A stretch of 26,140 bases of DNA from assembly GCA_900321335.1 (NCBI GenBank), contig ONVR01000231.1, forward strand, positions 1 through 26,140, read 5' to 3'. The position numbers and the translations under genes were made by a program. This DNA is from an uncultured Eubacteriales bacterium (GTDB lineage: Bacteria; Bacillota; Clostridia; Oscillospirales; Oscillospiraceae). The notes under the pieces were generated by a model. It had not been told where the DNA came from and made no database searches. It worked only from the letters and a program-made list of their open reading frames with translations. The first letter of the stretch is position 1; the number at the start of each line of letters is the position of its first letter. This document shows positions 7,304 through 10,154 of this stretch, in pieces.

Positions 7304-7705
7304 TTACGCCCATTTTTCACAGGTTCCGTCCATGGTGTTGTAGTCGGCGTCCATCTCCTCCAGATAAAACGCCGCGTGAGTCAGGTCGCTGTCGGGACCG
7401 TACTTTTGCTTGAGGAAGGGACTCTGGGCAAACAGAGCCTCCTCCGTTTCCTTGCTCCAGTCAAACACGGCCCTGCCCCGGACCCGGACCCACTCGCCGC
7501 CCTTGCAGGCGCAGATCTCCACGTAGGGATTCTTCTCCGTCTCGGCATAGCTGCGTTTGTGTTTGCCCATGCCGAAATACAGTCTGTCGTTGAGCAGGAA
7601 GATGGCGCCGAAGGGGCGGACGCGGCCTTTGCCCTCGTCGCTGGTGGCGTAGAAGAATACGCCGCAGTCCTTGATGAAATTGTAAATTTTCTCGTTGGCA
7701 GTCAA
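7304..7705 (-). CDS. Pyridoxamine 5'-phosphate oxidase-like (flavin-binding split-barrel) protein
   Basis: Motifs FFYAT..GKGRVRPFG, LYFGMGKHK, KNPYVEIC, WVRVRGRAVF. TTG start at 7705 follows a GAGGTG RBS; the ORF-track GTG at 7714 lies inside that RBS. Confidence 0.8.
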   Translation of the reverse strand: MTANEKIYNFIKDCGVFFYATSDEGKGRVRPFGAIFLLNDRLYFGMGKHKRSYAETEKNPYVEICACKGGEWVRVRGRAVFDWSKETEEALFAQSPFLKQKYGPDSDLTHAAFYLEEMDADYNTMDGTCEKWA

Positions 7706-7733
7706 GGAAATCACCTCATTTTTAGTTTTTCAA

Positions 7734-7761
7734 ATTATAGCAACTTTTCCCGGCTTTTTCA
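7734..7761 (-). promoter_or_regulatory. Candidate sigma-A promoter for the split-barrel / repeat-protein unit
   Basis: Minus strand TTGAAA-16 nt-TATAAT with TG extended -10. Confidence 0.55.
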
Positions 7762-7821
7762 ATACCCGCCGGGGAAAAAGCGTCGACTGACTGTATTTTT
7801 TAAAAACTACCCTGCATCGTA

Positions 7822-7850
7822 TTGACAAGCGCAAAAAACGTGCATATTAT
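7822..7850 (+). promoter_or_regulatory. Near-consensus sigma-A promoter of the holin-endolysin cassette
   Basis: TTGACA (7822-7827), 17 nt, TATTAT (7845-7850). Confidence 0.75.
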
Positions 7851-7933
7851 GAGATTAGAGGTAGACGCGGCCTGAAACCTCTTCGGAATGCGGCGAGGGG
7901 GAAGAAGCGCGAAAGCCTCGGTATACAAAGGAG

Positions 7934-7972
7934 CGGCAAGCTGTGCGTCGTCGGCGCGGCTTGCTGATTTTT
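7934..7972 (+). terminator. Terminator-like hairpin inside the 5' leader of the holin gene (putative attenuator)
   Basis: GCAAGCTGTGC pairs with GCGCGGCTTGC (11 bp, two G-U), followed by TGATTTTT, immediately before the RBS GGAGG (7975-7979). Confidence 0.55.
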
Positions 7973-7985
7973 ATGGAGGGATAAC

Positions 7986-8192
7986 ATGACAAAAGCGTTT
8001 TTCAAAGCGGCCGGGATCCGCGCCCTGCGGACCGTCTGCCAGACGGCGGCGGCCACCATCGGCACGACGGCGCTGCTGCACCAGGTGGATTGGCTGGCAG
8101 TGGCGTCAGCGTCTGTGCTGGCGGGGATCCTGAGCCTGCTCAACAGCGTTGCGACCGGACTGCCGGAGGTGAAAAATGGCAACAGCAAGTGA
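7986..8192 (+). CDS. Phage-type holin (r1t-like family)
   Basis: 68 aa, two hydrophobic segments, signature AAGIRALRTVCQTAAATIG...VDWLAVASASVLAGILSLLNSVATGLPEV. Overlaps the lysin start. Confidence 0.85.
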   Translation: MTKAFFKAAGIRALRTVCQTAAATIGTTALLHQVDWLAVASASVLAGILSLLNSVATGLPEVKNGNSK

Positions 8193-8907
8193 GATCCTGT
8201 CTATCGCCCGTTCCCAGATCGGGTACACGGAGTACCCGCCGGACAGCAACAACACCAAGTACGGCGCGGCTTACGGGATGAACTACAATCCCTGGTGCAT
8301 GATGTTTGTCTGGTGGTGCTTCCGGCAGGCTGGGGCCTCCGGCCTGTTTTACGGCGGCGGCAAGACGGCCTCCTGTCCCACCTTTGAGCGGTGGGCAAAG
8401 GCCCAACGCGGCAGATGGATCACCCGGTCCTTTGCGCCGGGAGATGTGGTCCTTTACGATTTTGACGGCGACGGGGCCGACCACTGCGGTATCGTGGAGT
8501 CGGCAACTGCCGCCACCGTGACGGCCATTGAGGGCAACACCTCGGCCAACGGCTCCCAGGACAACGGGGGCGCCGTGCTGCGCAAGACCAGATCGCTGGA
8601 TCTTGTCGTCGGCGCGTACCGACCGGGATATCAGGCGGCGTCGGCGTCGCCGGGAACAGACAGCGAAAAGGGGGGAGTGTTTCGGGTGGCAACCCTGGAG
8701 ATGATCAGCAAGGGCTCTCAGGGCGCCCAGGTCCGGGCCATGCAGACCCTTCTGATCGGCTACGGCTACAGCTGCGGCGTCTGGGGCGCCGACGGAGACT
8801 GCGGCAGCGGCACCGTGGCGGCGATCAGGAAATACCAGAAAGCTCATGACCTGACGGCAGACGGCATCTGCGGTCCGCTGACCTGGGCGTCCCTCTTGGG
8901 GGCGTAA
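8176..8907 (+). CDS. Endolysin-like cell wall hydrolase: CHAP domain plus C-terminal peptidoglycan-binding domain
   Basis: CHAP catalytic motifs PWCMMFV and DHCGIVE...IEGNT. PG-binding motif KGSQGAQVRAMQTLL...DGDCGSGTVAAIRKYQ...ADGICGPLTW. No signal peptide. Confidence 0.9.
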   Translation: MATASEILSIARSQIGYTEYPPDSNNTKYGAAYGMNYNPWCMMFVWWCFRQAGASGLFYGGGKTASCPTFERWAKAQRGRWITRSFAPGDVVLYDFDGDGADHCGIVESATAATVTAIEGNTSANGSQDNGGAVLRKTRSLDLVVGAYRPGYQAASASPGTDSEKGGVFRVATLEMISKGSQGAQVRAMQTLLIGYGYSCGVWGADGDCGSGTVAAIRKYQKAHDLTADGICGPLTWASLLGA

Positions 8908-8913
8908 AGAGCA

Positions 8914-8943
8914 TTGCGCCCGGAGAGGATTCTCCGGGCGCAA
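8914..8943 (+). terminator. Hairpin after the endolysin gene
   Basis: TTGCGCCCGGAGA-GGAT-TCTCCGGGCGCAA, a perfect 13-bp stem with no clean U-tract on the plus strand. Confidence 0.6.
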
Positions 8944-8983
8944 AACAATTTGAAAAAAAGTTAAAATATTTCAAAATTAACTA

Positions 8984-9012
8984 TTGCATTTTGAAAAATA
9001 GTGTGCTATTAT
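8984..9012 (+). promoter_or_regulatory. tRNA operon promoter
   Basis: TTGCAT-17 nt-TATTAT with TG extended -10 and an AT-rich upstream tract. Confidence 0.65.
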
Positions 9013-9037
9013 AATCAGGCTTTGAGGCAAAGCCTAT

Positions 9038-9113
9038 CCGGGTGTAGCGCAGATGGTAGCGCGCTTGAATGGGGTTCAAGAGGCCGCTGGTTCAAATCCA
9101 GTCACTCGGACCA
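9038..9113 (+). tRNA. tRNA-Pro (anticodon GGG)
   Basis: Cloverleaf with acceptor CCGGGTG/CACTCGG, anticodon arm CTTGA-ATGGGGT-TCAAG, T-loop TTCAAAT, A73 and encoded CCA. Confidence 0.95.
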
Positions 9114-9162
9114 AAGTTCGCCGCGGACCCAATCGTTCGCGGCGGCTTTGAAAAATCAATAT

Positions 9163-9237
<75 letters not shown>

Positions 9238-9238
<1 letters not shown>

Positions 9239-9279: not shown

Positions 9280-9351
9280 AGCTTCTTCCTTCTTCAGCAT
9301 CCCGTGACAGGTATCTCGAAATGCATACTGCATCTTCCCTGCGGGAATTTG

Positions 9352-9380
9352 TTGCGATTCCGGGCCGGATCCGGTATACT
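9352..9380 (+). promoter_or_regulatory. Candidate sigma-A promoter of sfsA-cupin
   Basis: TTGCGA-17 nt-TATACT. Confidence 0.55.
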
Positions 9381-9419
9381 GTAAAAAGAGGGCAGAAATC
9401 GCTGAAACCGAGGAGAACT

Positions 9420-10154
9420 ATGTTTACTTTTTGTCAGAGACTGGTTGAGGGAATAATAGAGAAGAGAAAGAGTCAGTTTACTATGCTTGTTACCGCAGAG
9501 GGACAGACGGGGGTGCCCTGTCACTGTCCCACTACGGGGCGTATCGGAAACATCGACGTGAGCGGCAGGCCGTGCCTGCTGTCAAGAAGCGCCGATCCCA
9601 ACCGCAAAACGGCATTTACGGTTGAGGCCATTTCCCTGGACAGGCCCGAAGATGAGCGGAAAACCTGGATCGGAATCAATCAGAACGCGGCGAACCGCTA
9701 CGTAGAATACTTTCTGAAAAACGGGGACTTTGCCGATATGGTGGGCCAGGTGAGTGAGGTCCGCCGGGAGGTTTTTCTGGGAAAGTCCAAGCTGGATTTT
9801 CTGGTCGGAAACACCTATCTTGAGGTCAAAACACCTCTTCAGCATTTGCAGGTGGAGGTTCCTGCCTGGGTCAGAACAAAAAAAGTCACACCGTTTTCCG
9901 CGACGGGACGCATGACAAAGCATTTTGAAGAGCTTGGGGGCAGCCTGCGGGAGCATGAACGGGCAATCATGCTGGTGTGTTTTCTCTATGACAATCCCGG
10001 ATTCAGGATCGTAGAGCGCAGTACAAACTACGAACAGGTCCGGGAACTGGTTGACCGCAATGTGACAAAGGGCGTAGAGACCTGGCAGGCCAACTTTGAG
10101 ATAACACCTGCGGGGGTTGCACTGAAAAAATACTTTCCGATCCATATTGCGTGA
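9420..10154 (+). CDS. sfsA: SfsA-family DNA/RNA nuclease (sugar fermentation stimulation protein A)
   Basis: N-terminal OB-like segment (HCPTTGRI, LLSRSADPNRKTAFT) and PD-(D/E)XK-like KLDFL...YLEVK. RBS GAGGAG before ATG 9420. Confidence 0.8.
   Translation: MFTFCQRLVEGIIEKRKSQFTMLVTAEGQTGVPCHCPTTGRIGNIDVSGRPCLLSRSADPNRKTAFTVEAISLDRPEDERKTWIGINQNAANRYVEYFLKNGDFADMVGQVSEVRREVFLGKSKLDFLVGNTYLEVKTPLQHLQVEVPAWVRTKKVTPFSATGRMTKHFEELGGSLREHERAIMLVCFLYDNPGFRIVERSTNYEQVRELVDRNVTKGVETWQANFEITPAGVALKKYFPIHIA

Follow-up and report, generated by a model that had tools for sequence, protein, structure and literature searches.

A phage-derived holin-endolysin cassette behind a terminator-bearing leader among host genes of an uncultured Oscillospiraceae bacterium

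Genes and control region of the cassette

The subject of this analysis is a holin-endolysin cassette in the genome of an uncultured Eubacteriales bacterium of the family Oscillospiraceae (GenBank assembly GCA_900321335.1, contig ONVR01000231.1). The window, i.e. the whole stretch of 26,140 nucleotides that was analysed, is the entire contig (C84) and the longest of the 392 contigs in a 2.09-Mb metagenome-assembled genome (MAG) that is 93% complete. As the MAG is fragmented and only complete to this degree, absence of a gene from it is weak evidence. The cassette comprises two overlapping genes preceded by a promoter-like site and a leader:

7822..7850 (+): sigma-A-type promoter-like site, TTGACA-17-TATTAT, 11/12 consensus positions
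7858..7919 (+): 5' domain of the leader, a long irregular hairpin with 19 predicted pairs, about -25.6 kcal/mol (folding)
7888..7989 (+): speculative upstream open reading frame (ORF) of 33 codons without a Shine-Dalgarno sequence, spanning the terminator, its TGA overlapping the holin ATG (ATGA) (sequence)
7934..7972 (+): intrinsic terminator, a 13-pair GC-rich stem (7934-7966) followed by A-TTTTT (terminator scan)
7975..7980 (+): holin ribosome-binding site GGAGGG, 5 nt 5' of the ATG (sequence)
7986..8192 (+): holin of the r1t family, 68 aa (Pfam PF16945 Phage_r1t_holin, 6.8e-13; phrog_443)
8176..8907 (+): endolysin, 243 aa, with an N-terminal CHAP domain, a disordered linker (aa 156-170) and a C-terminal PG_binding_1 domain (Pfam, phrogs, model)
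8914..8943 (+): perfect 13-bp hairpin 3' of the lysin stop, without a U-run on the + strand (terminator and inverted-repeat scans)

The holin matched Phage_r1t_holin (PF16945) at 48.9 bits, against a curated cut-off of 26.9, and the holin family phrog_443 at 1.7e-14. Of its two hydrophobic stretches, that at about aa 36-58 is a clear transmembrane segment and that at about aa 12-32 is weaker; the C-terminus is polar (PEVKNGNSK). The genome encodes no other r1t holin.

The start of the lysin gene overlaps the end of the holin gene by 17 nt and has its own ribosome-binding site, GGAGGTG. The lysin was matched to CHAP at 45.3 bits (cut-off 26), to PG_binding_1 at 55.5 bits and to endolysin phrogs at E-values down to 6e-40. 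In a 25-sequence family alignment Cys41, His103 and Asn121 were invariant and Glu119 was conserved in at least 90% of sequences; the lysin of the window has all four. No hydrophobic N-terminus that could serve as a signal peptide or signal-anchor was found, the maximum Kyte-Doolittle mean being 0.67 for 15-residue segments starting in the first 25 residues. A preliminary description, made from the window alone, had proposed an intact holin overlapping an intact CHAP/PG-binding lysin, with catalytic Cys and His in place and no signal peptide, and each of these points was borne out.

The AlphaFold model of the lysin, built on the family alignment, reached a pLDDT of 90.6 and showed two domains joined by the disordered linker. 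The nearest solved folds of the N-terminal domain were the CHAP endolysins Ly7917 (5d74), LysIME-EF1 (6ist) and PlyPy (5udn), followed by NlpC/P60 peptidases. The likeness to the three endolysins lies in the fold (Foldseek E ~1e-4, probability 1.0) and in the Cys-His catalytic core, while sequence identity is only 18-23%. The C-terminal domain found its best solved folds among PG_binding_1 modules (nearest 5tv7, the SleB N-domain and phiKZ gp144), and so differs from the SH3b or other wall-binding domains of those enzymes. Family membership makes the pair a holin and a cytoplasmic, holin-dependent CHAP/PG-binding endolysin, with predicted roles in making a membrane lesion and hydrolysing peptidoglycan. 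The lysin appears to be an intact enzyme that is likely to be active on the cell walls of a group that is hard to culture.

Four promoter-like sites were seen in the scanned region, compared with 0.9 expected from shuffled sequences; the scan detected none between the site at 7822-7850 and the holin. A separate promoter-like site, at 7762-7734, belongs to the left neighbour of the cassette, a PNPOx-like flavoprotein gene. The leader, about 130 nt long, folds as two independent units (whole-leader z = -3.06). The terminator hairpin alone is worth about -25 kcal/mol, folds independently of the 5' domain and ends 3 bases before GGAGGG. Since the PNPOx-like gene is transcribed away from the cassette, with a promoter-like site to itself, no upstream gene reads into the leader, so that the terminator must act on transcripts from the cassette promoter; and since it lies between this promoter and the holin ribosome-binding site, expression of the cassette needs read-through. 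The near-consensus promoter noted in the preliminary description therefore stands, but it is only half of the control. The hairpin that was described as closing the cassette is also present, but lacks a U-run on the + strand and is not a canonical terminator.

No regulator of the cassette was recognised. Searches of the window with Rfam 15 returned only tRNAs at gathering thresholds, and a single chance match in 7780-8020 up to E = 10. There was no LexA (Cheo) box near the promoter, and no match to a Q-type antiterminator (PF06530, PF03589) in the 93%-complete MAG. A blastn-short search of the same genome gave no homologue of the leader, and no copy of leader or promoter was found elsewhere in it. 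The 33-codon upstream ORF was statistically unremarkable and carries little weight; if translated, it would allow translation-coupled attenuation, which is speculative. The terminator-bearing leader, which is specific to this lineage, is the one distinctive point of this cassette.

Phage relatives and host surroundings

The closest relatives of the pair that could be read with their surroundings were phage, among them a rumen siphophage. In a rumen contig of bin RUG467 (ONNS01000049.1, also an IMG/VR viral contig) the lysin is 79% identical in amino acids over its first 103 residues, where the contig ends, and in a second relative that could be read with its surroundings, an IMG/VR contig, it is 63% identical over the full length. 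In both, genes for the major tail, tape-measure, Dit, Tal and tail proteins lie directly upstream of the holin and lysin. Nucleotide identity to the RUG467-type phage and two JGI contigs of the same phage (L021/L046) was 76.7% over 7986-8582 and 66% over 8726-8908, the match running from the holin ATG to the lysin stop and including the overlapping gene arrangement. The holin is 74% identical in amino acids to that of the rumen siphophage.

The siphophage module (ONNS01000049.1/RUG467; Ga0256869_1075600, Ga0256404_1098585) thus shares an r1t-type holin overlapping a CHAP + PG_binding_1 lysin (about 70% amino acid and 77% nucleotide identity), with the same GGAGGTG ribosome-binding site within the holin end. 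It differs in that the phage pair follows tail genes and two small ORFs, which abut the holin, and has no counterpart of the promoter-leader-terminator unit, whereas in the window the pair stands alone among host genes. The GC content at third codon positions (GC3) also differs, at 0.60-0.68 in the phage pair and 0.81 here. dN/dS between the window and the phage copy was 0.25 for the holin and 0.20 for the lysin (dS 0.7-1.3), values that reflect constraint on the combined path and cannot isolate the host branch. Among GenBank phages there was no nucleotide match to 7715-9037, and protein matches were at most 32.5% identical, to endolysins of Bifidobacterium, Actinomyces and Streptomyces phages. 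Judged by these alignments, the pair is of phage origin and is homologous as a unit to the terminal lysis module of the rumen siphophage, in agreement with the lysis-module origin and orphan state first suggested for it.

At five related loci (L074, L075, L086, L087 and L089) an r1t-type holin 55-72% identical to that of the window lies downstream of the lysin, not upstream, indicating that gene order is not fixed in this lysis-module family.

The cassette has the following host neighbours:

7304..7714 (-): PNPOx-like flavoprotein gene, left neighbour, divergent from the cassette (Pfam PNPOx_N, 6.1e-09)
7793..7810 (no strand): AT-rich imperfect palindrome between the two divergent promoters, a possible operator or UP element (inverted repeat I19)
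8984..9012 (+): promoter of the tRNA pair, TTGCAT-17-TATTAT (sequence; the region resembles a paralogous tRNA-Pro(GGG) locus on contig C105)
9038..9238 (+): tRNA-Pro(GGG) at 9038-9113 and tRNA-Ala(GGC) at 9163-9238, then sfsA (ARAGORN, Rfam; SfsA Pfam matches)

The left flank holds genes for a PucR-type regulator, an MFS transporter, a URO-D-family enzyme, a spermidine-synthase-like membrane protein and a small acidic membrane protein, and then the PNPOx-like gene. On the right, the tRNAs and SfsA are followed by a cupin, a YARHG protein, an EIIC-like permease, NAPRTase, SHMT and CdaA/CdaR. With up to 3 mismatches allowed, the rest of the genome gave only chance-level matches to the palindrome. 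The two tRNA genes are 78% identical over 59 nt (within 9035-9218), with nearly the same anticodon arms. For SfsA (9321-10154), gene callers begin at 9420 (244 aa), and this exact protein is present in the protein collection; the longer reading from 9321 (277 aa) is used only in some JGI records. The GC3 of this gene, 0.59, is well under that of neighbouring genes.

Host genes on both sides of the cassette, and a GC content like that of host genes, had been claimed for it before, and both claims hold: the PNPOx-like gene lies to the left and the tRNA promoter and tRNAs to the right, while the cassette has a GC content of 0.64 and a GC3 of 0.81, compared with a host-gene median GC3 of 0.74. Composition was nevertheless rejected as a sign of long residence. 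A phage fragment in the same bin has a GC3 of 0.70-0.82, so a phage of this host would appear host-like regardless.

None of the flanking genes tested matched a phage family, and none of the recombinase matches of the genome lies on the contig of the window. The earlier statement that no integrase or structural gene is visible therefore applies to the 26-kb contig, but not to the MAG, which contains four tyrosine recombinases, all on other contigs, and a fragment with phage head genes. This fragment, contig C154 (2.7 kb; L060:1-2746), encodes the C-terminus of a terminase large subunit, a small ORF, a portal protein and a ClpP-type head protease. Its portal was found on only 2 contigs in a collection of 15 billion proteins and in 4/41 related genomes, with the best match in another family. 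Given this rare and sporadic distribution, C154 is an ordinary sporadic phage and not a fixed partner of the cassette. No Pfam matches to HK97 capsid, tape-measure or TerL_ATPase were found in the MAG, nor any structural homologues of donor-type phages; the proteins of those phages gave matches in the MAG only to the lysin family itself, besides one weak match on contig C307.

The window holds no partial copy of tRNA-Pro that could represent an att-type repeat, which agrees with the absence of a duplicated tRNA 3' end noted earlier. Contig C105 carries another full tRNA-Pro(GGG) gene (12-87, - strand), which is 97% identical to that of the window and lies 11 nt from the contig break. It was rejected as an att-type partial repeat, being a full paralogue with its own promoter: the region is homologous to 8973-9113 of the window, with 84% identity over 143 nt including the tRNA, and is preceded by an ORF of 617 aa. 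This second copy may explain the frequent assembly breaks near the locus. It could also be the sign of a junction that is variable or that belongs to a prophage.

Two unrelated prophages with lysins of this family also abut the 3' end of a tRNA-Pro(GGG), with lysin and tRNA convergent (L049:9998-11272 and L073:7978-9123); in L049 the genes on the far side of the tRNA are host coaBC, a permease and a P-type ATPase. Integration at the 3' end of tRNA-Pro(GGG) was rejected as the source of the present order, since the cassette is on the 5' side of the tRNA and co-directional with it, an order that such integration does not yield. These prophages and the cassette nonetheless have a tRNA-Pro(GGG) neighbour in common, an apparent coincidence.

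Occurrence in other assemblies

The lysin belongs to a 90% identity cluster of 29 members (NCBI, JGI, ENA and Logan), 15 of which were listed; 12 of these are lysins other than that of the window. Among the listed alleles, 11 are of 243 aa and one is of 245 aa through an in-frame insertion of 2 aa in the linker, and all are intact. The 11 full-length alleles vary at 12 sites, all of them outside the 35 columns that are invariant in the family. For the holin, one and the same protein is recorded on 51 contigs.

The 'longest contig' values recorded for the lysin alleles recur among those of the flanking proteins, as follows:

52343 bp: lysin, holin, PNPOx, SfsA, cupin and YARHG (both sides)
23288 bp: lysin, spermidine-synthase-like, cupin and YARHG (both sides)
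4966 bp: lysin, PNPOx and SfsA
32733 bp: lysin, PNPOx, spermidine-synthase-like and URO-D (left side)
23317 bp: lysin, PNPOx, spermidine-synthase-like and URO-D (left side)
9919 bp: lysin, PNPOx and spermidine-synthase-like (left side)
11522 bp: lysin and spermidine-synthase-like (left side)
5471 bp: lysin and spermidine-synthase-like (left side)

The flank proteins matched in this way are exact or near-exact copies of those of the window, and the lysin alleles are at least 97.5% identical. Such specific values are effectively fingerprints, from which we infer that the cassette lies at the same site, beside the same host genes, in at least eight more assemblies, all with different lysin alleles. 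With PNPOx, lysin and SfsA all within 4966 bp, there is no room for a prophage at that site. No contig value was common to the left and right flanks without also being found for the lysin.

Protein differences from the window amounted to 28/1944 (1.44%) for the lysin and 35/6136 (0.57%) for the flanks, where the pooled divergence of single genes was 0-1.35% (PNPOx, SfsA and cupin at 1.0-1.35%). With housekeeping constraint of the usual strength, synonymous divergence between strains would come to a few per cent; an unconstrained pair of 0.94 kb would then be expected to have accumulated several times as much protein change, along with many frameshifts, but the alleles show neither. That the pair is intact, and about as slow to change as its faster-evolving neighbours, points to purifying selection on it in the host. 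Of the checks that had been suggested, dN/dS could be calculated against the phage copy, as given above, while within the lineage only protein divergence was compared; a strain-specific and decaying pair, the outcome that had been named as speaking against domestication, is not what the intact alleles, the shared flanks and the 51 holin-bearing contigs indicate. The GTDB set contains no second species of the genus, and a cross-genus synteny test was uninformative because the best PNPOx orthologue (G008, 62%) was not syntenic.

Interpretation and comparison with known systems

The reading that we favour, with moderate confidence, is that a phage lysis cassette was captured by an Oscillospiraceae chromosome and has since been retained under attenuator-like control. 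Default termination in the leader with conditional read-through would be the most economical account of the control region. In the proposed mechanism, the strong sigma-A promoter would fire and most transcripts would end at the leader terminator, just 5' of the holin ribosome-binding site, until a signal permits read-through by RNA polymerase. Such a signal might come from a processive antiterminator, from a ligand or protein that targets the hairpin domain at the 5' end, or from coupled translation of the short upstream ORF. Holin and lysin would then be made together from one transcript; the holin would build up and open the membrane, and the signal-less lysin would reach the wall and cut peptidoglycan cross-links, so that the cell lyses or leaks. 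Because the outcome would be lethal, lysis would most plausibly occur in a fraction of the cells, freeing cytoplasmic contents, DNA or the lysin itself. Subpopulation lysis, release of contents and use of the lysin as a weapon are thus candidate roles.

If the host does use the cassette, an abundant uncultured Oscillospiraceae lineage of gut or rumen carries a switch for self-lysis or release, which would affect DNA release, cross-feeding and the release of vesicles or proteins in the community. Host-kept lysis cassettes are already known as a class, and the value of this one would be that of a well-documented Gram-positive case, not of a new principle. A bolder proposal, for which we hold only limited expectation, is that the leader (7858-7972) acts as a lineage-specific sensor that times host-owned lysis in a fraction of the population, whether as a new riboswitch, through a protein or processive antiterminator that targets it, or by translation-coupled attenuation with the upstream ORF. 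Were this true, a commensal Gram-positive anaerobe would possess a programmed switch for altruistic lysis. The compact order of promoter, hairpin, terminator and holin offers a direct handle on the triggering signal.

Several observations weigh against capture, retention and regulated use. On the regulatory side, no antiterminator pairing that would compete with the terminator was evident in the leader folds. Homologues of the leader were not found among 37 lysin loci (blastn, nhmmer), and in 300 family genomes blastn gave only short chance matches on the GC-rich stem; no exact 30-mer of the leader was found in viral and genome collections, and a single-sequence covariance model searched against 150 family genomes gave two matches, both inside ORFs and attributable to chance. 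The terminator could equally silence a toxic remnant. With regard to retention, the same-site argument is built on protein alleles and identical contig values obtained by exact-protein look-up, not on DNA sequences from those assemblies. The rate at which the lysin changes is about 2.5 times that of the average flank, and the neutral expectation given above assumes a strain-level dS of about 2-5%. Beyond the species, PNPOx homologues of at most 81% identity share no contig value with any lysin homologue, and acquisition of the cassette may be recent.

The preliminary description had interpreted the pair as a domesticated lysis or secretion module. Its phage derivation and orphan state stand, and retention appears likely. 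The closest relatives with readable surroundings are phage and not chromosomal, so far an answer in the phage direction to a check proposed at the time. There is also no gene for a signal-less cargo protein near the cassette, whose neighbours are the PNPOx-like enzyme, the small acidic membrane protein, the two tRNAs, SfsA and the cupin.

Much of the same evidence can be read as the trace of an inert prophage remnant, in which a phage integrated, all but its last two genes were deleted, there has been no time for decay, and the terminator silences the pair. The phage nature of the closest readable relatives is as expected for a remnant, as are the failure to detect the arrangement beyond the species-level cluster, the small strain divergence (0.57% in flank protein) and a terminator placed between the sole promoter and the genes. 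Prophages L049 and L073, with related lysins, also abut tRNA-Pro(GGG), the neighbour of this cassette. Nevertheless, a remnant is unlikely in view of several features. Nothing else of phage type, neither a gene nor an integrase nor a partial att repeat, is present in the window, and a cassette lying 5' of the tRNA and co-directional with it is on the wrong side for 3'-end integration. The listed alleles are intact, their variable sites avoid conserved columns, and an identical holin occurs on 51 contigs; a near-consensus promoter and good ribosome-binding sites have also been kept. The features expected of a cryptic prophage, either adjacent phage genes, integrase or att sites, or a sporadic and disrupted occurrence, were both absent, the latter as judged from protein alleles.

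We regard it as improbable that the pair is a lysis module acting in trans for a phage-derived particle encoded elsewhere, such as a defective prophage, a tailocin or an element resembling a gene transfer agent (GTA). GTA-like packaging has been reported to be common in Oscillospiraceae/Ruminococcaceae, and the GTA of Faecalibacterium keeps its holin and endolysin in a second operon, apart from the head genes (bioRxiv 10.1101/2024.11.15.623857). The MAG does have the phage head fragment C154, but its portal, with 2 contigs, 4/41 genomes and a best match in another family, is rare beside a holin found on 51 contigs. The missing HK97 capsid, tape-measure and TerL_ATPase matches, the missing structural homologues of donor-type phages (both in a fragmented, 93%-complete MAG) and the lack of a second leader or promoter copy in the genome also argue against it.

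Use of the pair chiefly as a weapon, in which the holin frees the CHAP lysin to attack the walls of competitors or siblings (bacteriolysin, fratricide), has an equally small chance of being right. In its favour, the lysin keeps a wall-binding domain and the full catalytic triad, related solitary CHAP lysins occur in conserved host contexts of two other Oscillospiraceae species, and Lactococcus prophage lysins are described as bacteriocin-like agents (PMC10377672). Against it, neither a gene for immunity nor any other means of self-protection is apparent, the wall of the producer itself should be a substrate for a lysin derived from a phage of this lineage, and holin-mediated release normally kills the producer.

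Among known systems, capture and retention by the host would bring the cassette close to type 10 secretion. Serratia ChiWXYZ, the Yen cassette of Yersinia entomophaga and the chitinase system of Salmonella are type 10 or host-kept lysis cassettes, and in Yersinia release takes place through lysis of a specialised subpopulation (PMC10847048, PMC10109510; review PMC9527704). Shared with these systems is a phage-derived holin and endolysin outside a prophage, which in the present case too would be host-kept and tightly regulated; the matching contig values suggest conservation in the lineage as well. The type 10 systems are Gram-negative, include spanins and lie beside signal-less cargo (chitinase, Tc toxin), whereas here the host is Gram-positive, there is no spanin, the holin and lysin belong to different families and no cargo is linked among the neighbours.

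In Clostridioides difficile, the pathogenicity locus PaLoc carries the TcdE holin and the TcdL endolysin remnant, which are phage-derived and under dedicated regulation (PMC10516005, PMC12485765, PMC9527704). Both cases involve a phage-derived lysis pair in a Gram-positive host of the clostridial class. They differ in the family of the holin, in the lysin, which is reduced to a degraded fragment in TcdL but is complete and apparently catalytic in the window, and in the toxin locus that surrounds TcdE and TcdL and has no counterpart here.

In the late unit of phage lambda (pR'-tR'-S-R), a strong promoter gives a short structured transcript that runs to an intrinsic terminator, after which come holin and endolysin, and Q acts by antitermination, the lysis genes being expressed only once termination is overridden. 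The cassette has the same order of promoter, intrinsic terminator and holin-endolysin. It differs in having no antiterminator of the Q-type families in the MAG, no homology and no late structural genes downstream, and the resemblance would be one of logic only; membership is not claimed.

Chromosomal holin-lysin genes that release particles or contents include the PBSX and SPbeta cassettes of Bacillus subtilis (xhlA-xhlB-xlyA) and the lysis genes 555/556 of the Rhodobacter GTA. These belong to a recognisable defective prophage or GTA, whereas searches of the MAG found no fixed particle-forming cluster here. Lysis genes are also carried by the GTA II operon of Faecalibacterium (bioRxiv 10.1101/2024.11.15.623857). 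The cassette is best filed as a further case of a known kind, the host-retained phage lysis cassette.

Lysins of this family also occur in other settings. A solitary, signal-less CHAP lysin without a holin (L076:7417-8678, L078:788-1462) is 59% identical to the CHAP domain of the window and 90% identical between two Oscillospiraceae species. At both loci its context consists of a histidyl-tRNA-synthetase-like gene, two tRNA-Ser genes, the lysin, a gene without an assigned family, an amt-glnB fusion and an FtsX/MacB-type ABC transporter, a conserved host context which indicates that the enzyme family has entered host chromosomes more than once. The closest lysin in the family genomes searched, 50% identical, is at L067 (G001:C48, 1016-4477). 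No phage genes can be recognised near it either: upstream are a tRNA-Gly, at a distance of 1.2 kb, and two small unannotatable ORFs, and downstream are genes for dockerin-domain proteins.

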